Shown: in pieces, positions 5,055 through 48,820 of the stretch
Layout: each line of letters begins with the position of its first letter
Position numbering within the stretch: the stretch's first letter is position 1
Source: a phage
Reading direction: 5' to 3' (one strand)
NCBI GenBank assembly: GCA_011839185.1
Contig: GCA_011839185.1_3918.1
Length of the DNA stretch: 64,000 nucleotides
Made by a program: the position numbers and the translations under genes
Notes under the pieces: model-generated
What the model saw: the letters and a program-made list of their open reading frames with translations, nothing else
Databases searched by the model: none
What the model was told of the DNA's origin: nothing

Positions 5055-7199
5055 ATGAACAAAGTACAGATTATTAAAAAGAATGGCTCACTTGAAGAAC
5101 CTGATATCAAAAAAGTTTTAGCAGCAGTAACTAAGTCAGCTAACAGGGTTGGGTATAAAGAACTTCCACCAGATGTTACCCAAGCTCTTGAGTCAGCATT
5201 CATGAGGATTCTGGTGAAGTCCACTAAGCAGAATAATTTGCTCATCTCGGTAAATGACATTCACAGTATTGTTGAGGGTGCTTTGGCAGAAGTCAATCAC
5301 GAGATTTACGAGTCTTACTCAACATATAGAAATTACCGTAAAGAGGTTGCTCAAAATTGGGATGAGCTTTACCAAAAGACTAGAGACACACTCTTCTTAG
5401 GTGACCGTGAAAATGCCAACTTTGACAGCAGTTTAATTTCTACAAAAGGTTCAATTATTCGTGGTTATCTGACTAAAGAAATCTTTAAACAATACCATTT
5501 AACACCAGAGGAACTTGAAGCCATTGAAAAAGGGTTTATCTACATCCATGACTTAAGAGACTTAATTTTTGGTGGTATTAACTGCTGCTTGTTTGACATT
5601 GGTAAAGTACTGAAAGGTGGCTTTGAAATGTCTGGCATCGAATATTGTGAACCGAAGTCTGTGCTGTCGGCCTTACAAGTTATTGGTGACGTAGTTCTTT
5701 CAGCAACTGCACAGCAATTTGGTGGCTTTACTTTAGCAGAGATTGACAAGGTACTTGTACCGTATGCTAAGAAGTCTCTACGCTATCATGCTGAGAAAGC
5801 AACATCTTATGGTATTCCTAAAGAACATTACCATAATTATGTCATGGAGCAGTTACAGATTGAATTAACTCAAGGTTTCCAATCACTTGAAATGAAGCTA
5901 AACACTGTACCTTGCAGCCGTGGTGATTTCGCATTCACAACTTTAACATTTGGTTTACTTGACTCAGATATGTCTAATGAAGACAACCGATTACAATACA
6001 TGATTGCAAGTACTCTCCTAGATGTTCGTATGAATGGACAAGGGAAGAGCAAGAAGCCTGTTGTATTTCCTAAACTGGTTTATATTTATGACCAGAAGAG
6101 GCATGATGAAAATATCTGTCAAGGTCAACTGTACAGTAAAGCCATTGAGTGTTGCTCTAAAGCAATGTATCCAGATTTCTTAAGTGTATCTGGTCATGGT
6201 GCTGTAGCAGAGGCTTTTGAGCGTTCTGGCAAGGTAATTTCACCGATGGGTTGCAGAGCCTTCTTATCTCCATATCTTAATGAGGATGGAGAAGAGTTCT
6301 ATGTTGGTCGTGCTAATATTGGTGCTGTATCTTTGAACTTACCAATGATTTATCAGTACGCCAAAGAGAATGGTTTAGATTTCTGGAAAGAGCTTGATAA
6401 GTACCTAGAGATGATTCGCAGCTTCCACAAGAAACGCTACGAAATGATTGCTAATATGCCAGCAAGTTCTAACCCTCTTGCATTCACACAAGGTGGTCTG
6501 TACAAAGGAACTAAGAAACCTACTGACAAGGTTGGTTGGGATATTGTGAAGTCCTTCACAGCTTCTTTTGGGGTTACTGCGCTTGATGAGTTATCTGTTC
6601 TTGCTGAGGGTAAACGACTTCATGAAGTTGGAAGCTATAGTTTTGCATACGATGTTCTGGCATACATCAACATGAAAACTGAAGAGTTTAAAAACGAAGA
6701 TGGCTTCTTATATGCCGTCTATGGTACTCCAGCAGAATCACTTTGTGGAACTCAACTAAAACAGTTCAGAGATATGCTTGGCGTTATTAAAGGTGTTTCT
6801 GACAAGGAATACTTCACAAACAGTTTTCATATGAATGTTGCAGCAGACATCTCACCATTTGAGAAGCAGGACTTAGAAGAGCCATTCTTCCATATCTGTA
6901 GAGGTGGCAGAATCCAGTATGTAAGGGTGGCTAACCCAGAAAACTTATCAGCACTTAAAAGCTGTATTACAAGAGGCATGTTGAAAGGTTTTTATCAGGG
7001 ACTTAACTTTGACTTAGCAATCTGTGAGCATTGTGGTAACAGGCCAAAGGCTGATGTTGAAGAATGTGAAGTTTGTCACTCACATGATATCTCTGTGATT
7101 AACAGGGTGTGTGGGTATCTTGGATGGACTAAGATTAAAGGTGAATCCCGAATGAACGATGCAAAAATCGCTGAGATTCGTGATAGAGTCTCTATGTAA
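5055..7199 (+). CDS. nrdD: anaerobic ribonucleotide reductase class III
   Basis: 714 aa; N-terminal ATP-cone-like segment; C-terminal glycyl-radical motif RVCGYLG; CxxC...CxxC zinc ribbon before it. Confidence 0.9.
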   Translation: MNKVQIIKKNGSLEEPDIKKVLAAVTKSANRVGYKELPPDVTQALESAFMRILVKSTKQNNLLISVNDIHSIVEGALAEVNHEIYESYSTYRNYRKEVAQNWDELYQKTRDTLFLGDRENANFDSSLISTKGSIIRGYLTKEIFKQYHLTPEELEAIEKGFIYIHDLRDLIFGGINCCLFDIGKVLKGGFEMSGIEYCEPKSVLSALQVIGDVVLSATAQQFGGFTLAEIDKVLVPYAKKSLRYHAEKATSYGIPKEHYHNYVMEQLQIELTQGFQSLEMKLNTVPCSRGDFAFTTLTFGLLDSDMSNEDNRLQYMIASTLLDVRMNGQGKSKKPVVFPKLVYIYDQKRHDENICQGQLYSKAIECCSKAMYPDFLSVSGHGAVAEAFERSGKVISPMGCRAFLSPYLNEDGEEFYVGRANIGAVSLNLPMIYQYAKENGLDFWKELDKYLEMIRSFHKKRYEMIANMPASSNPLAFTQGGLYKGTKKPTDKVGWDIVKSFTASFGVTALDELSVLAEGKRLHEVGSYSFAYDVLAYINMKTEEFKNEDGFLYAVYGTPAESLCGTQLKQFRDMLGVIKGVSDKEYFTNSFHMNVAADISPFEKQDLEEPFFHICRGGRIQYVRVANPENLSALKSCITRGMLKGFYQGLNFDLAICEHCGNRPKADVEECEVCHSHDISVINRVCGYLGWTKIKGESRMNDAKIAEIRDRVSM

Positions 7200-9196: not shown

Positions 9197-9209
9197 GCAG
9201 ATACTATAA

Positions 9210-9235
9210 GGGAACTGTAAAGGTTCCCTTTTTAT
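9210..9235 (+). terminator. rho-independent terminator
   Basis: GGGAAC...GTTCCC hairpin followed by TTTTTA. Confidence 0.6.
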
Positions 9236-9247
9236 TTTGGAGATAGT

Positions 9248-9763
9248 ATGTACCTGTCAAATCTGAAACGTTCTGCTGCAATGTCAGTGTTAAGACTCAG
9301 TTTTGAGGAACGTCAAGAGTTCATTGACTCCCACCAATACGACCCTTCCAACTCCAATCACATGATTCTCTGGAATCGTGAGAGTACTCGTGAAAGAGCA
9401 TTATTTCGATATTACCCACACTACACCATAGATAATCTGTATGAATGTTTTGTTGTGAAGAACACCATTACAGTACTCAATAAACTTTGCAGATACACAG
9501 GCAGTCAATCCTTCACATTAGGTCATCACAAACCTGTTACAAAAGGTGGTGAACATCACTGTGCAAACTGGTTTATCCAAACTAAAGCTGATAACCAGAA
9601 GCAAGGAGATAGCCTCCTAAGTATCCCTAAGATGACCTATGAAGAGCAAGAGAAATATATCAAAAATAATATGCCAGATGTGCTTGACAACAACTATACA
9701 GATTTGGCAATATCTCTCCTGTTGAAGTTCGAGACAGTTTATAGGGCAACTTATAATGGCTAA
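9248..9763 (+). CDS. HNH-family endonuclease-like protein
   Basis: 171 aa; HHKPVTKGGEHHCANWFIQ...N matches the HNH pattern. Confidence 0.55.
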   Translation: MYLSNLKRSAAMSVLRLSFEERQEFIDSHQYDPSNSNHMILWNRESTRERALFRYYPHYTIDNLYECFVVKNTITVLNKLCRYTGSQSFTLGHHKPVTKGGEHHCANWFIQTKADNQKQGDSLLSIPKMTYEEQEKYIKNNMPDVLDNNYTDLAISLLLKFETVYRATYNG

Positions 9764-10034
9764 AGAAAAGTGGGAGATTTTACCATTAGTCAGTGAAGGA
9801 GGTAATGGTTGTGAAATGTACATGATACGTGGTCATGTTCCAGAGCCAATTGCACTTGAGATGGTAAACAACTTTACAGATGGTTCTTACAAAGACTTAG
9901 GCGAACCAACTGTCAAGCAACAATGGGTTAAACCTGTACCAGACAGCACAGGTAACTGTAGTGTACTTTATCACGTTGTAGACCCTGCAAAATGCAAATC
10001 TGCAATGGCAGTAACAAACGTAACTTTTGATTGA
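9756..10034 (+). CDS. hypothetical protein
   Basis: 92 aa; start overlaps the upstream stop. Confidence 0.4.
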   Translation: MAKEKWEILPLVSEGGNGCEMYMIRGHVPEPIALEMVNNFTDGSYKDLGEPTVKQQWVKPVPDSTGNCSVLYHVVDPAKCKSAMAVTNVTFD

Positions 10035-10049
10035 GAGAGAGAGAAAACT

Positions 10050-10931
10050 ATGAAAACAACTATCCGAGTTCTGCTTAATGCTAATACTAAAGGTAGCATT
10101 CAAGAAGTCTTTAACATTATCCAATTCCCGTCTGGTGAGATTGGTGGCAACTTCTCCGAAGACTTTGTTGGATTTGCTGAAAAATTTGCTGGACAGATTG
10201 ATAATGCTTTCTTCGCAGTGCAAGGCTATGACAAAGATACGCTATTTGCATTAGCTCTGGCTAAAGAGGCAGTTGATAAATTGGTTCCTCAAGGTTCAGC
10301 TACGAAGACAGTTGTTTTTGGATTCTTACCAAACGCACGTTATGACCGTCACATGTTTAAAGGTGATGCAGCAGCCCTTAAGGTATTTGCTAATTTGGTA
10401 AATGCAATGGAGTTTGATGCAGTATGTGCTTTGGACACTCACAGTAACGTTGCAGAAAACCTTTTCAAGTGCTTCCACAACTTACCTCAGAAAGAGTTTG
10501 CAGCACACTTTGCAAGTGACCCTCGCATTGATTACTTGGTAGCTCCAGATGCAGGTGCAGCTAAGAAGACTGAAGAGACTGCTAAAGAGGTTGACAAGCC
10601 TTACATTACAATGGCAAAAGTTCGCAACCTGAAAACTGGTGAAATCACTGGTATGCGACTTCTCGATGATGTAGACTTAACTGGTAAAACCGTCATGATT
10701 CTTGATGATATTTGTGATGGTGGTCGAACATTCGTAGAGGCTGCAAAGTGTCTTCGTGAAGCTGGAGCAGAACGTGTGGAACTGTATGTGACACATGGTA
10801 TTTTCTCTAAAGGTGTCCAGAACCTTCTTTACAATGGTATTGACCATGTTTATACTACAAACTCTTTAGGAAATGCTGAAGACCGTGGGTTATCACATTT
10901 CAACAAAGTAACTGTAGCAAACCTTGATTAA
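10050..10931 (+). CDS. ribose-phosphate pyrophosphokinase-like enzyme (PRPP synthetase or ADPR-PP synthetase type)
   Basis: 293 aa; LVAPDAGAAKK and VMILDDICDGGRT PRPP-binding-type motifs. Confidence 0.7.
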   Translation: MKTTIRVLLNANTKGSIQEVFNIIQFPSGEIGGNFSEDFVGFAEKFAGQIDNAFFAVQGYDKDTLFALALAKEAVDKLVPQGSATKTVVFGFLPNARYDRHMFKGDAAALKVFANLVNAMEFDAVCALDTHSNVAENLFKCFHNLPQKEFAAHFASDPRIDYLVAPDAGAAKKTEETAKEVDKPYITMAKVRNLKTGEITGMRLLDDVDLTGKTVMILDDICDGGRTFVEAAKCLREAGAERVELYVTHGIFSKGVQNLLYNGIDHVYTTNSLGNAEDRGLSHFNKVTVANLD

Positions 10932-10940
10932 AACTTTATA

Positions 10941-10963
10941 GGGGCTTTTAAGCCCCATTTTGA
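10941..10963 (+). terminator. terminator-like hairpin
   Basis: GGGGCTT-TTAA-GCCCC followed by ATTTT. Confidence 0.45.
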
Positions 10964-10976
10964 GAGAGATTAAAAG

Positions 10977-12758
10977 ATGACTAAATCACTTTATGCAGTA
11001 CCAGCAGGTTTAAACGCAGATGCTTACAAATCTGGTCACATTTACCAGTATCCTAGTGCAACAGAATACTTGATGTTCAACCTAACACCACGTAGTGACA
11101 AATGGTTTAACAGCCCTTTAGCAATTGACGGTGTAGTGGCTTTTGGTATTCAACGTTTTGTTAAAGATTACCTGATAGACCACTGGAACGCCACCTTCTT
11201 TGAACGTGACAAAAAAGAAGCAATTGATGAAATCTTAGAAGTCATGAACGGTGTTCTGGGTAAAGATGCTATTGGTCGAGAGCATTGGGAAGCACTCCAT
11301 GACTTAGGTTATCTACCAGTTGAAGTATACGCTGTAGAAGAAGGCACAGTTGTCCCTATGCGTGTACCAATTATTGTCTTCCAGAACACTGTTTCAGGTT
11401 TCCATTGGGTAGCGGGGTATCTTGAAGATGCTTTCTCTGCTGAGATTTGGAAGGCTTGTACCATTGCAACTATTGCATTGCACTACAAACGTATCTGTAA
11501 GAAGTGGGCTGACCTTACTTGTGACAACGACTTGCATTTACCTTATCAGTGCCATGACTTTGCTATGCGTGGTATGTCCGGCTTTACTGATGACGCATTT
11601 AACGCTGTAGGACACTTAACCAGCTTTAAAGGAACTGATAGTTTCCCTGCTGTGTATACAGCTAAACGCATCTATGGGCAGTCCTACCCAATCTCTGATA
11701 TTGGTAGTTCTGTACCAGCCACTGAACACTCTGTAATGTGTGCAAACATTGCTTGGGAAGGTGGTAATGAATTGATTGAAGAAGAAAGACGCTTCAAAGG
11801 TGAGTTGCAAACCTTCCGTCGCTTCTTAACAGAGACTTACCCGACTGGTATTGCAAGTATTGTTTCAGACACTTATAACTTCTGGAGAACTGTGTCAGAA
11901 ATCTTGCCAGCACTTCGCAAAGAGATTATGGAACGTGACGGTAAACTGGTAATTCGTCCTGACTCTGGAGACCCTGTACATATTGTCACAGGTTATAAAG
12001 CAATCCACTTAGAGTGTGCTAAAAAGGCTTATTATGAACACCTAAGCAAGCTGGAAGCCAGTGACACAATGCTGAATGCTGTTCTGAACATGAAGCTTGA
12101 GAATATCAACTATGGTATTGCTGGATGGCTACTGTCAGAAGGCTATGAAATGGTTGTTGACAGAGAAGACTTTGAAGTTGCTGATACAGTGATGTTGAAA
12201 AATGCTTATATGGTTGGTTCTGCAAACGTTGTAACACGTCCTGTAGCAGAGATTGATGGGGCCATTAAGACCCTGTATAACATCTTTGGAGGAACTATCA
12301 ACTCTAAAGGGTTTAAGGTACTGGATGAGCACATTGGACTTATCTATGGTGACTCTATCACGTTGGAACGTGCAAACGAAATCCTGAAGCGTTTGTATGA
12401 AATGGGTTTTGCAAGTTCTAACGTAGTGTTTGGTGTAGGTTCTTACACTTACCAGTACATGACTCGTGACACCTTTGCATTTGCTGTCAAAGCAACTCTT
12501 GCGAGCATTGGTGGTAAAGAGATTATGCTTGCAAAAGACCCTAAAACAGATAGTGGTATTAAGAAGTCTGCTTTTGGTGGTGTAGCCCCTATGTGGGATG
12601 GTGAGAACCTGAAAGCTGTAGATGGCTATGGATTCCAGAGTTTTGCAGATGCACTTGAACACCCAGCTTGTGCTTTACGTCTAGTCTTTAGCGACTCTGA
12701 GCAGTTCGGCTACACAACTCTTGGCGATATTCGAAATAATATTGACAAGCAGCTTTAA
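10977..12758 (+). CDS. nicotinamide phosphoribosyltransferase-family protein (NAMPT-like)
   Basis: 593 aa; VIRPDSGDP motif typical of NAMPT/NAPRT enzymes; directly downstream of the Prs-like gene. Confidence 0.7.
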   Translation: MTKSLYAVPAGLNADAYKSGHIYQYPSATEYLMFNLTPRSDKWFNSPLAIDGVVAFGIQRFVKDYLIDHWNATFFERDKKEAIDEILEVMNGVLGKDAIGREHWEALHDLGYLPVEVYAVEEGTVVPMRVPIIVFQNTVSGFHWVAGYLEDAFSAEIWKACTIATIALHYKRICKKWADLTCDNDLHLPYQCHDFAMRGMSGFTDDAFNAVGHLTSFKGTDSFPAVYTAKRIYGQSYPISDIGSSVPATEHSVMCANIAWEGGNELIEEERRFKGELQTFRRFLTETYPTGIASIVSDTYNFWRTVSEILPALRKEIMERDGKLVIRPDSGDPVHIVTGYKAIHLECAKKAYYEHLSKLEASDTMLNAVLNMKLENINYGIAGWLLSEGYEMVVDREDFEVADTVMLKNAYMVGSANVVTRPVAEIDGAIKTLYNIFGGTINSKGFKVLDEHIGLIYGDSITLERANEILKRLYEMGFASSNVVFGVGSYTYQYMTRDTFAFAVKATLASIGGKEIMLAKDPKTDSGIKKSAFGGVAPMWDGENLKAVDGYGFQSFADALEHPACALRLVFSDSEQFGYTTLGDIRNNIDKQL

Positions 12759-12773
12759 AAGTATATGATAAGA

Positions 12774-12795
12774 GGCTCCTACGGGAGCCTTTTTA
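12774..12795 (+). terminator. rho-independent terminator
   Basis: GGCTCC-TACG-GGAGCC followed by TTTTT. Confidence 0.6.
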
Positions 12796-12811
12796 ATTTC
12801 TGGAGAAGATT

Positions 12812-18739: not shown

Positions 18740-19087
18740 ATGACATTTAAAGAGTTCTGTCAAGCTACTTTCATAATTGTTTTCTTAGTTGGGGCAGGTG
18801 TCTGGGGAGGATACTCTTACAGAGACTACCAAGTTGCTGAAACTGAGCTAAACAATGAGAAGCTGATAAGTGTTGCTAAAGATGCTTATCAGGAAGGATT
18901 AGCTACACTGAGCACCAATTACAAAAATGATTTGAAAGATGTGCTTGCTAAGAATAAGCACACAAAAGAGGTACTAACGTATGAAAAAACTAAGCCAGAG
19001 TTTTATAATGTTTGTGTTACTGATAATTATGTCAGGGTGTTCAACGAACAAAGTGAACAGTACATTCAAAAACTCCCAAGTAAGTGA
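18740..19087 (+). CDS. inner-membrane spanin-like protein
   Basis: 115 aa; single N-terminal TM segment then charged periplasmic-type region; 3' end overlaps a lipoprotein gene in another frame. Confidence 0.4.
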   Translation: MTFKEFCQATFIIVFLVGAGVWGGYSYRDYQVAETELNNEKLISVAKDAYQEGLATLSTNYKNDLKDVLAKNKHTKEVLTYEKTKPEFYNVCVTDNYVRVFNEQSEQYIQKLPSK

Positions 19088-20240: not shown

Positions 20241-21026
20241 ATGGGTATTGTAAAAATCATCAATGGCGATATCTTTGCCGCATTTGATAAAGGTAAGTTT
20301 GACATTATTGGTCACGGTTGCAACTGTATGAATTTAATGGGTGCAGGTATCGCTGACAAGATTTCTAAACTTTACCCAAAAGCATATGAGACAGATACAG
20401 AAGTCTATCTATATGCAGGTGGCATAGGTCACAAACCCTGTGAAAATTTACTGGGTAATTTCTCTGTAGCACGTTTAAAACAAGGTCGTATAGCTAACCT
20501 TTACACTCAGCTTAAGACTGGTAAAGATGCCCGATACAGTGCTTTAGAGTCATCTTTGAAACAGCTTAACAGATACTGTGAAGTTAATCAGTTGAAGAAA
20601 GTTGGTTTACCTATGATTGGTGCAGGTATAGGTGGGCTGGACCCTCAAGCTGTCACAGTTATCATCAATCAGGTGATGAAGAGTGTAGATGTTTATCTGT
20701 ATGTCTATGAAGGAGAGATGTACCACAAGTTACGCTCAGGTTGGAAGAACTACTGTGAACCAGAATACTTTGCAGGTGTAGCAGTGTTCACGGATAACGC
20801 AGTTACCCTCTTCAGACGAAGAAAAGGTAAGATACATCAAAGTAACCCTCCGGTTGAAAGGATGTCTCTAAGTAACGCTCTAGTTACCCACCTGTCGAAG
20901 AGCAATCACAGAATAGCTGTGACATTTGGTAGTGATGCAGATGCTTACATCTATGCAAGAACTGATGAGGATATCGAGGCAATTTTCTCATCACCGGAAG
21001 TTACCTTCTTAGACGCAAAGAACTAA
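20241..21026 (+). CDS. macro-domain-like protein (ADP-ribose binding or processing)
   Basis: 261 aa; GHGCNCMNLMGAGIADKI resembles the macro-domain Gly-rich loop; not confirmed. Confidence 0.4.
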   Translation: MGIVKIINGDIFAAFDKGKFDIIGHGCNCMNLMGAGIADKISKLYPKAYETDTEVYLYAGGIGHKPCENLLGNFSVARLKQGRIANLYTQLKTGKDARYSALESSLKQLNRYCEVNQLKKVGLPMIGAGIGGLDPQAVTVIINQVMKSVDVYLYVYEGEMYHKLRSGWKNYCEPEYFAGVAVFTDNAVTLFRRRKGKIHQSNPPVERMSLSNALVTHLSKSNHRIAVTFGSDADAYIYARTDEDIEAIFSSPEVTFLDAKN

Positions 21027-41533: not shown

Positions 41534-41621
41534 GGTAGGTAGCGGCTAATGGTAGCCAAACTGTCTTGAAAACAGTTGCCACTGTAGAGATACGGTGAGG
41601 GTTCGACTCCTTTACTTACCG
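41534..41621 (+). tRNA. tRNA-Ser (anticodon TGA), long variable arm
   Basis: 88 nt; acceptor GGTAGGT/ACTTACC, 3-bp D-stem, arm ACTGT-CTTGAAA-ACAGT, T-loop TTCGACT; no encoded CCA. Confidence 0.65.
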
Positions 41622-46844: not shown

Positions 46845-48320
46845 GTGAGAAGAATGGCAGATATTACAGAAACACAAGAAAGCTTACCACCATTTAGAAT
46901 GGGTGAAGTAGGTTCTTTGGGTCTGAAGGTTAAGAATGGAAGAATCTATGAAGAACCTCGTCAGGCACTAAGGTTCCCTGAAAGTATTAAAACTTTCCAA
47001 TTAATGATGCGTGACCCTGCTGTAGCAGCATCTGTAAATATTATTAAGATGTTTGTCAGAAAAGTCAACTGGAGATTCGTACCTCCAAAGGGAAAAGAGC
47101 AAGACCCTAAAATGCTTGAAAGAGCAGACTTCTTTAATTCTTTAATGGATGACATGGAGCATGATTGGGCAGATTTTATTAACTCTGTAATGTCATTCTG
47201 CACTTATGGGTTCTGTGTTAACGAAAAGGTTTATAAGAAACGTCAGGGTAAAAAAGGAAAGTACCAGTCAAAATTTGATGATGGTCTAATTGGGTGGGCT
47301 AAATTACCAATCAGAAACCAGTCAACGCTTGATAAGTGGTATTTTGACGAAGACTTTAGAAAAGTTACTGGTGTTAGACAGAATCTGAGAAATGTTTCAC
47401 ATATTGCTGGAGCAATCAATCTCGGAGAAAGACCACTAACAAGAAAACTTCCACGAGCTAAATTCATGCTGTTTAAGTATGATGATGAGTATGGTAACCC
47501 AGAAGGTCGTTCACCATTACTTAATGCTTATGTACCGTGGAAATATAAAGTACAGATTGAAGAGTATGAAGCTGTTGGTGTTTCAAGAGACTTAGTAGGT
47601 ATGCCAAAGATTGGTTTACCACCAGACTATCTGGATGAAAATGCAGAGCCTGAAAAGAAAGCTTTCGTACAATACTGCAAAACTGTTGTTAATGACATGA
47701 TTGCTAATGACAGAGCAGGTTTAATCTGGCCTAGATATATCGACCCAGAAACTAAAGAGGATATCTTTGAGTTCTCATTAGTTTCTAGACAGGGTGCTAA
47801 AGCATATGATACAGGTTCTATCATTGACAGATATTCCAAGCAAATTATGATGGCATTTATGTCAGATGTTCTTGCTATGGGTCAGTCAAAATATGGTTCA
47901 TTCTCTCTTGCAGATTCTAAGACAAGCCTATTAGCAATGTCAGTAGATATTCTGCTGAAGCAAATTAAGAACGTAATTAACCGTGATTTAGTTGCACAGA
48001 CTTATGCTCTTAATATGTGGGATGATGAAGAACATGTACAAATCACATACGATGATATCGAAACTCCAGACCTTGAAGCAATTGGTTCTTATATTCAGAA
48101 GACTGTTGCAGTAGGTGCTTTGGAAGTTGACAAAGAGCTATCTAACAAACTTAGAGAGCATATTGGTCTTCCTCCTGCTGATGAGTCTCAGCCAGTATCT
48201 GAAAAGCTTTCTCCAAATAGCCAAAGCCGTTCAGGAGATGGTTATAAGACCGCTGGAGAAGGTACTGCAAAGACACCTTCAGCGAAAGACCCAAGCACAG
48301 CAAATAAGGCAAATAAATAA
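46845..48320 (+). CDS. portal protein
   Basis: 491 aa immediately after the large terminase; assignment by size and position. Confidence 0.6.
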   Translation: MRRMADITETQESLPPFRMGEVGSLGLKVKNGRIYEEPRQALRFPESIKTFQLMMRDPAVAASVNIIKMFVRKVNWRFVPPKGKEQDPKMLERADFFNSLMDDMEHDWADFINSVMSFCTYGFCVNEKVYKKRQGKKGKYQSKFDDGLIGWAKLPIRNQSTLDKWYFDEDFRKVTGVRQNLRNVSHIAGAINLGERPLTRKLPRAKFMLFKYDDEYGNPEGRSPLLNAYVPWKYKVQIEEYEAVGVSRDLVGMPKIGLPPDYLDENAEPEKKAFVQYCKTVVNDMIANDRAGLIWPRYIDPETKEDIFEFSLVSRQGAKAYDTGSIIDRYSKQIMMAFMSDVLAMGQSKYGSFSLADSKTSLLAMSVDILLKQIKNVINRDLVAQTYALNMWDDEEHVQITYDDIETPDLEAIGSYIQKTVAVGALEVDKELSNKLREHIGLPPADESQPVSEKLSPNSQSRSGDGYKTAGEGTAKTPSAKDPSTANKANK

Positions 48321-48820
48321 TGGCTGAAGTTATCTCTATTTCAAATGCTACACGAGTGCATTCGTATAGGGGTGTCCTTATCATCACTAATAAGTTATCT
48401 GTAGAGGCTGGCTCAAGGGTCAGCCTTTCAGGTTATGTTAGTGATGGTGGAGTCTCTGACGTTTTCACTATTTGCAGGTTACTTGATGCACCAATGAGTG
48501 GAAAACCGTTTATTTCAGGAAATTGTAGTGAAATTGTTAAAATTCCATTTGACAGTTCATGCCTTTTGGGTGTAAAGTTATATAACTGCGAGAATAAACG
48601 TATCAATGTTAATAGCATTGAAGCCGCTTTCATTACCCTCGATACTGCATTTCAATCCCCAATGACAGTTAACAAAGAAACAAACAGACTTGAATACATT
48701 TTTTCACAAAATGATTACAAAGTACTTGTCAAAGGTAAAGTATATGATATGATTGTAAATGTGGTAGATGAATCTGGTAACCATTCAACAGTCCTTAAAC
48801 AAAAAGTAAGGTTTAATTAA
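48320..48820 (+). CDS. hypothetical head-module protein
   Basis: ORF track 166 aa; start overlaps the portal stop. Confidence 0.45.
   Translation: MAEVISISNATRVHSYRGVLIITNKLSVEAGSRVSLSGYVSDGGVSDVFTICRLLDAPMSGKPFISGNCSEIVKIPFDSSCLLGVKLYNCENKRINVNSIEAAFITLDTAFQSPMTVNKETNRLEYIFSQNDYKVLVKGKVYDMIVNVVDESGNHSTVLKQKVRFN

Follow-up and report, generated by a model that had tools for sequence, protein, structure and literature searches.

A PRPP-synthetase-like and NAMPT-like gene pair in a Felixounavirus genome

The window analyzed here is a phage DNA stretch of 64,000 nucleotides (GenBank assembly GCA_011839185.1, contig GCA_011839185.1_3918.1), and our subject is a pair of plus-strand genes in it that very probably encode Adps and Namat, the two enzymes of NAD+ reconstitution pathway 1 (NARP1). 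The first gene (10050..10931) encodes a protein of 293 amino acids (aa) that resembles phosphoribosyl pyrophosphate (PRPP) synthetases and is the putative ADP-ribose (ADPR) pyrophosphokinase, Adps, which would convert ADPR and ATP to ADPR-pyrophosphate (ADPR-PP) and AMP. The second (10977..12758) encodes a NAMPT-like protein of 593 aa, the putative nicotinamide ADP-ribose transferase called Namat, which would form NAD+ and pyrophosphate from ADPR-PP and nicotinamide. The stop codon of the Adps gene and the start codon of the Namat gene, both on the plus strand, are separated by a spacer of 45 nucleotides (nt). A first-pass annotation, made by a model from the letters of the window, had described two adjacent genes with these boundaries and lengths, and both were recovered unchanged.

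The window is part of a Felixounavirus genome and is collinear over its full length with Escherichia phage JohannRWettstein (Bas63, MZ501086); in Bas63 coordinates it begins at position 41,573, reaches the end of the genome, and continues to position 18,987. The gene pair matched 258 phage records at 80 to 98% DNA identity, almost all of them FelixO1-like phages, whose hosts are Escherichia, Salmonella, Shigella, and Citrobacter. Window and Bas63 share the gene order NrdG, gp77, gp78, Adps, Namat, gp82, gp83, rIIA, rIIB, and, farther along, gp95, a macro-domain gene.

The first enzyme resembles phage ADP-ribose pyrophosphokinases

The assignment of the two proteins to the PRPP synthetase and NAMPT families, proposed in the first-pass annotation, was borne out by Pfam and by the family motifs. 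Adps matched Pribosyltran (E = 9e-11) and Pribosyl_synth (E = 7.5e-10), and its phosphoribosyl (PP) loop, DDICDGGRTF, was located at aa 219 to 228. Adps aligns without gaps to the equally long Bas63 gp79 at 81.2% identity, 55 of the 293 residues being different. A MAFFT alignment was built from the window protein, the Adps proteins of ICP1 and SPbetaL1, three other phage Adps proteins, and E. coli Prs. Against the Adps proteins from other genera (those of ICP1, SPbetaL1, a Pseudomonas phage, and Vibrio phage eugene) the window protein showed 29 to 35% identity; against E. coli Prs the figure was 23%.

The catalytic and acceptor residues of Adps were found in their expected columns. Lysine K190 aligns with the catalytic beta-hairpin lysine, K185 in ICP1 and K162 in SPbetaL1, which is essential by mutation in both enzymes (ICP1 Adps structures, PMC13586617). 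R97, H131, D167, D219, and D220 align with the acceptor residues R87, H121, D161, D212, and D213. The PP loop fits the Adps pattern DD-I/L-C-D-G-x-x-T/S-F; the corresponding loops read DDICDGAASF in ICP1 and DDMIDTGGTL in E. coli Prs. Adps ends some 20 residues before E. coli Prs and is missing the C-terminal alpha11-alpha12 module, which has regulatory and filament roles in Prs; this truncation is common to the window protein, ICP1, SPbetaL1, and the other aligned Adps proteins.

Profile scores pointed in the same direction. Among NCBIfam models, Adps passed only the broad subfamily TIGR01251 (131 bits, cutoff 113), and it scored no more than 106 bits on every Prs equivalog or specific-subfamily model, all of which have cutoffs of at least 296 bits. 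Published work recognizes Adps by a homolog of Namat no more than ten genes away, and here one begins 45 nt downstream. PADLOC returned only weak phosphoribosyltransferase-domain matches for Adps (PsyrT and ShosT), which are uninformative for the pair.

The second enzyme carries the Namat core and the signature of the selectivity clamp

Namat matched NAPRTase (E = 7e-35) and NAMPT_N in Pfam, contains the motif RPDSGDP at aa 327 to 333, and aligns without gaps to Bas63 gp80, a protein of the same length, at 98.1% identity. Its catalytic core is complete, comprising D15, Y17, F195, R198, D221, H251, R327, and D329; the published core of SPbetaL1 Namat consists of D13, Y15, F189, R192, D215, the catalytic histidine, R306, and D308 (PMC12774641).

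Selectivity for ADPR-PP has been ascribed to a clamp made of a helix with the signature GS-X-phi-X-phi-X-phi-TRD, in which X is aromatic, and a variable loop that provides a stacking residue (PMC12774641). According to the same study, the loop has Arg at position 3, or Lys or Tyr at that position followed by an adenine-stacking residue, and Bas63 is the cited Lys variant. The selectivity-clamp loop (SCL) of the window protein, PRSDKWFNSPL (11088..11120, plus strand), supplies K42-W43 and is identical in sequence to that of Bas63. The selectivity-clamp helix (SCH) signature reads GSYTYQYMTRD (12438..12470, plus strand), with the aromatic residues Y490 and Y494. The same segment differs in solved proteins annotated as NAMPT, being GAQTYQRNTRD in HdNadV and GGALLQKVDRD in Xcc Nampt.

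The best solved relatives of Namat were PDB entries 9w5w and 9w5x (E = 3e-127). Judged by their sequences, these are structures of SPbetaL1 Namat, an identification made in this analysis because the sequence begins with the stretch that the cloning primer for SPbetaL1 Namat encodes, the numbering places D13, Y15, and R40 as published, and the SCH segment GSFTYQYNTRD is present.

Further proteins with the Namat signature were encountered. Many of about 495 aa, carrying GS[YF]TYQYNTRD, lie on large contigs that bear the Enterobacterales names Klebsiella, Cronobacter, Kluyvera, Kosakonia, and Phytobacter, and these proteins are 46 to 48% identical to the window Namat. They fit the bacterial NARP1 homologs that have been reported.

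A lineage-specific insertion in Namat

The first-pass annotation had noted that the NAMPT-like protein is about 100 aa longer than typical and had suggested that this might reflect altered specificity. The extra length is real. The spacing from RPDSGDP to YGD is 121 residues in the window Namat versus 49 in the 495-aa relatives, and the added length is a lineage-specific insertion of about 86 residues (aa 340 to 425; 11994..12251, plus strand) that follows the RPDSGDP strand. Ounavirinae-type Namats have the insertion, even those with an identity as low as 45%; SPbetaL1 Namat (491 aa; 9w5w), ICP1 Namat, bacterial Namat-like proteins, and the 495-aa relatives lack it. Another group of Namats has a different, unrelated insertion at the same site. 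In an AlphaFold2 model of Namat with a predicted local distance difference test (pLDDT) score of 93.9, the insertion folds as beta-3alpha-2beta-alpha-beta, with block pLDDT values of 93 to 96. Searches of the insertion against Pfam and PDB sequences gave no match, and the text of the Namat structure paper (PMC12774641) does not mention it, the word "insert" occurring there in a cloning context only.

The suggested link to specificity did not hold up. [quoted passage not shown] The insertion may instead be a regulatory or interaction module.

The pair as a probable Felixounavirus copy of NARP1

NARP1, consisting of Adps and Namat, was discovered in genes 79 and 80 of Bas63. Deletion of these genes made the phage about 20-fold more sensitive to SIR2-HerA and deepened the depletion of NAD+; ADPR-PP appeared only when the operon and the defense system were both present, and the operon worked independently of host pncC and nadR. 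The enzyme biochemistry behind the definition of the pathway was done with the SPbetaL1 homologs, and the supplementary tables of that study list FelixO1, wV8, and Bas63 as having "Adps-associated" Namat and Namat-associated Adps (all from bioRxiv 10.1101/2024.02.11.579819). SPbetaL1 Namat makes NAD+ directly and favors ADPR-PP over PRPP (PMC12774641). The Adps enzymes of SPbetaL1 and ICP1 produce ADPR-PP from ADPR and ATP and make no PRPP from ribose-5-phosphate (PMC13586617).

Given the orthology, the synteny, and the conserved diagnostic residues described above, we consider it very probable (roughly 0.93) that the window pair is a Felixounavirus copy of NARP1 and functions as such. The ADPR-based route through a Prs-like and a NAMPT-like enzyme, which the first-pass annotation had favored, is thereby supported, since orthology and synteny link the pair to Bas63 79-80 and it has the diagnostic features of both Adps and Namat. 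In the proposed mechanism, a defense system (SIR2-HerA/Nezha, Thoeris, DSR1/2, SEFIR, or a similar one) would cleave NAD+ to ADP-ribose and nicotinamide. Adps would then move the beta-gamma pyrophosphate of ATP onto the 1'' hydroxyl of ADP-ribose to give ADPR-PP, and Namat would couple nicotinamide to ADPR-PP by NAMPT-type chemistry. NAD+ would be rebuilt directly in this way, with neither a nicotinamide mononucleotide (NMN) intermediate nor an NMN adenylyltransferase (NMNAT). We infer that the window allele of Adps and its Namat share the catalytic activities of their homologs and, from the 81% and 98% identity to the Bas63 proteins, that the pair would protect against NAD+-depleting defenses without host NMN salvage.

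Several observations weigh against this assignment. Of the two aromatic residues of ICP1 Adps that contact the ADPR adenine, F18, contributed by the neighboring protomer, aligns with F26 of the window protein, but the adenine-stacking F92 corresponds to Met102 in all Felixounavirus Adps proteins, that of Bas63 included, and to a gap in SPbetaL1. Namat passed the NCBIfam equivalog for the NAMPT type (468 bits, cutoff 405). Namats also keep PRPP-dependent NMN synthesis in vitro, at about half of the activity of human Nampt (PMC12774641), and a minor canonical, NMN-forming activity of the window Namat is possible. The assayed homologs from SPbetaL1 and ICP1 are distant, with 29 to 31% identity for Adps and roughly 48% for Namat, the latter figure referring to shared segments without the insertion and taken by analogy with the 495-aa relatives. 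The purified-enzyme data come from SPbetaL1 and ICP1, and the window Adps differs from that of Bas63 at 55 of 293 positions.

Two other routes to NAD+ were weighed against NARP1. The pair might boost canonical salvage, with a PRPP synthetase and a NAMPT making NMN that host NadR or PncC would take on to NAD+. The Pfam, PHROG, and GenBank labels, which name a ribose-phosphate pyrophosphokinase and a nicotinamide phosphoribosyltransferase, agree with this, as do the NCBIfam equivalog score of Namat, the residual in vitro NMN formation by Namats, and the 42% identity of Namat to HdNadV, a NAMPT-annotated protein crystallized with NMN. Yet the Bas63 operon makes ADPR-PP and functions without pncC and nadR, the SCH aromatics that distinguish Namats are present here and missing from HdNadV and Xcc Nampt, and Adps falls under all Prs equivalog cutoffs and has no regulatory C terminus; we regard canonical salvage as highly improbable. 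The second route would be of the NARP2 type (NAMPT plus NMNAT) or the NARP3 type (PnuC plus NadR), with the partner gene elsewhere in the genome. The window leaves about 23 kb of the genome uncovered, and short or very divergent NMNATs could evade Pfam. However, Pfam scans found no NMNAT (CTP_transf_like), NadR, or PnuC among 20 unassigned open reading frames (ORFs) that span 130 aa or more, taken from either strand of the window, nor among the 10 unassigned ORFs of the Bas63 segment that lies outside it. The Bas63 annotation contains none of the three either, and published trees label the Namat clade Adps-associated rather than Nmnat-associated. NARP2 and NARP3 are unsupported because these partner genes were neither found in the scans nor annotated in Bas63, and we give this route next to no chance. 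The first-pass annotation had seen no NMNAT in the window, and the scans agree with it.

NARP1 is a known pathway whose first description came from the very genus of the window phage (Bas63, 2024), so the pathway itself is not new. With structures of both enzyme types following in 2026, the window copy carries little weight as a discovery, and its value is mainly one of annotation. Database records still read "ribose-phosphate pyrophosphokinase" and "nicotinamide phosphoribosyltransferase," and they could be relabeled Adps and Namat by the motifs checked here. The side points, namely an unlinked macro protein with an extra domain, a rare Adps allele, and the Namat insertion, are cheap follow-ups in a tractable phage group.

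Relation to characterized systems

The closest counterpart is the NARP1 of Bas63, which belongs to the same genus and agrees with the window in gene order, protein lengths, the Namat insertion, and the clamp residues; the differences are that the window Adps is only 81.2% identical and that the window is without bas63_0081. The NARP1 systems of SPbetaL1 and ICP1 likewise consist of two adjoining genes in the same order as in the window. They share with it the catalytic Lys, the acceptor residues, the PP-loop type, and the C-terminal truncation of Adps, along with the core and SCH signature of Namat. SPbetaL1 Namat has Arg40 in the SCL where the window protein has K42-W43, and it does not have the insertion of about 86 aa. 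Between ICP1 Adps and the window Adps, F92 is replaced by Met102 and the PP-loop residues AAS by GRT.

More distant comparisons concern systems with the same NAD+-restoring purpose and the enzyme families from which the two proteins are drawn. NARP2 of Vibrio phage KVP40 (Nampt plus a bifunctional Nmnat) and NARP3 of Bas30 (PnuC plus NadR; PMC13464706) also restore NAD+, but the window Namat has the Namat motif rather than the Nampt motif, and NMNAT, NadR, and PnuC were not found in the scans. E. coli Prs has DDMIDTGG where the window Adps has DDICDGG, carries Asp in the column of K190 in the MAFFT alignment, and possesses C-terminal helices that the window Adps lacks. In HdNadV, Xcc Nampt, and human NAMPT, all members of the NAMPT family, the SCH has Q/R or G/L in place of the aromatic residues of the window Namat.

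A macro-domain gene downstream of the pair

The first-pass annotation had also pointed to a macro-domain-like gene 7.5 kb downstream of the pair. Such a gene is present on the plus strand at 20241..21026 (Pfam Macro, E = 1e-7), starting 7,482 nt and 13 ORFs past the Namat stop codon; it was the sole macro gene found and is the homolog of Bas63 gp95. Although its location and family stood, its part in the pathway could not be demonstrated. The protein has two domains, an N-terminal macro domain of the TARG1/DarG/Poa1p class and an all-beta C-terminal domain of about 85 aa (aa ~175 to 250). The C-terminal domain is confined to Ounavirinae-like phages (258 full-length matches), and no other relatives of it were found by sequence search. 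PADLOC gave only a weak DarG match for the protein.

The macro family corresponds to PHROG 335, which holds both Adpp, the ADPR-1''-phosphate phosphatase, and T4 Tk.4/AdfM. The window protein is 27 to 36% identical to Adpp proteins and has all of the invariant residues in common with them. It scores higher, however, against the AdfM type, represented by the Tequatrovirus protein at the tk.4 position, than against the Adpp of Vibrio phage Gary (83 versus 53 bits). The window protein and the AdfM type share the motifs HGCNC and NLYTQ, which in the majority of Adpp proteins read HQxNC and NxYGQ. We rejected a firm identification of the protein as Adpp, T4 Tk.4/AdfM being in the same family and scoring higher. 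The macro protein might support NARP1 or might be an unrelated counter-defense protein.

One can nevertheless picture a dispersed three-enzyme NARP1-AP, in which the macro protein, acting as Adpp, would convert ADPR-1''-phosphate, the product of aRES, to ADPR for use by Adps. This would extend the NARP1 explanation rather than exclude it. The protein is homologous to Adpp, the phosphatase of NARP1 operons, and falls in the same PHROG 335. The aRES study checked only two genes on each side of NARP1, and no Felixounavirus appears in its table (bioRxiv 10.64898/2026.01.28.702374). The published definition of NARP1-AP, on the other hand, places the macro phosphatase inside the operon or within two genes of it, while here the gene lies 13 ORFs away and past a terminator-like site. 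The macro family extends over about 2,850 phage records, T4-like phages included, and its T4 member Tk.4/AdfM protects against DarTG2 (bioRxiv 10.1101/2025.11.20.689424). The higher score and the motifs shared with the AdfM type, together with an extra C-terminal domain not seen in Adpp, likewise argue against it. On balance we hold the dispersed arrangement to be a tentative and rather unlikely extension of NARP1. A slightly more doubtful version is that Felixounaviruses have this dispersed NARP1-AP and that their macro protein possibly also strips ADP-ribose from DNA as AdfM does. If a dispersed NARP1-AP existed, NARP1 in these phages could also defeat RES-type NAD+ phosphorylases (aRES), and the arrangement would escape surveys of operon neighborhoods.

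The known systems nearest to this protein differ from it in instructive ways. NARP1-AP of Vibrio phage Gary, with the order Adps-Adpp-Namat (bioRxiv 10.64898/2026.01.28.702374), has Adps and Namat homologs and a PHROG 335 macro protein in common with the window, but the window macro gene is outside the operon (by 7.5 kb and 13 ORFs), and its product has the additional C-terminal domain and is slightly closer to AdfM. T4 Tk.4/AdfM (bioRxiv 10.1101/2025.11.20.689424) shares a PHROG-335-type macro domain with HGCNC and NLYTQ; the window protein is 35% identical to the protein that a Tequatrovirus encodes in the vs-tk interval, the place of tk.4 in T4. The difference from T4 AdfM is again the all-beta C-terminal domain of the window protein.

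Allelic variation of Adps

Relative to Bas63, the Adps ORF is a sharp, gene-precise mosaic patch. DNA identity in 90-nt windows was 56 to 82% inside Adps (92% in one of them) and 91 to 98% in both flanks. Only phage vB_EcoM_H12 had the window allele of Adps at 100% identity, and about 250 other Felixounavirus records reached no more than 83%; the neighboring Namat was 90 to 99% identical in 215 records. Codon differences from Bas63 numbered 98 synonymous and 55 nonsynonymous in Adps (55/153) and 83 synonymous and 11 nonsynonymous in Namat (11/94). The mosaic borders, the rarity of the allele, and the raised nonsynonymous share suggest allele exchange, diversifying selection, or both at Adps, and host factors directed at Adps may lie behind the hypervariability.

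Gene neighborhood and putative transcription signals

Immediately upstream of Adps are homologs of gp77 and gp78 (9248..10034, plus strand), two genes that overlap by 8 nt. Their products, of 171 and 92 aa, share 97.1% and 98.9% of their residues with bas63_0077 and bas63_0078 and gave matches to PHROG 3500 and PHROG 4726, respectively, both families without an assigned function; the gp77 homolog also gave a weak HNH-like match, and neither had a Pfam match above threshold. These two genes share with Adps and Namat a pair of bracketing terminator-like sites and may be cotranscribed with the NARP1 genes. Both sites, on the plus strand, came from a consensus scan and are pattern matches only. 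The first (9208..9230) has a 9-bp stem followed by a T-run and probably ends the transcription unit that lies upstream of the gp77-gp78-Adps-Namat block. The second (12770..12793), directly 3' of Namat, has a 10-bp stem, 5 of whose pairs are GC, and then TTTT, and is probably the end of the transcription unit.

A third hairpin, GC rich, lies in the Adps-Namat spacer (10941..10956, plus strand), with a 6-bp stem, GGGGCU-UUUA-AGCCCC, followed by AUUUU. Its centroid energy is -11.5 kcal/mol (z = -2.5 versus shuffles), and Bas63 has the same stem with a different loop. The terminator scan made no call at this hairpin, which may act as an attenuator or serve in RNA processing or stabilization within the operon.

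Three further differences and repeats were observed around the locus. The ORF bas63_0081 (114 aa), which occupies the gap between Namat and gp82 in Bas63, is missing from the window (12759-12811, versus L007 10455-10857), a small indel polymorphism right downstream of the operon. At site 6252, within nrdD, the window is without the interrupting segment of about 740 bp found in Bas63 (47827-48569). The gene, which encodes the anaerobic ribonucleotide reductase, is a single ORF of 714 aa in the window (5055-7199); that of Bas63 is annotated as a two-piece join, with a nested homing-endonuclease ORF, bas63_0068, just downstream of the segment start. Between about 21900 and 27130, multiple copies of an intergenic element of about 90 to 115 nt lie among short ORFs, with 82 to 98% identity to one another and to several intergenic sites of Bas63, and these repeats are probably promoter/terminator cassettes of the short-ORF cluster.

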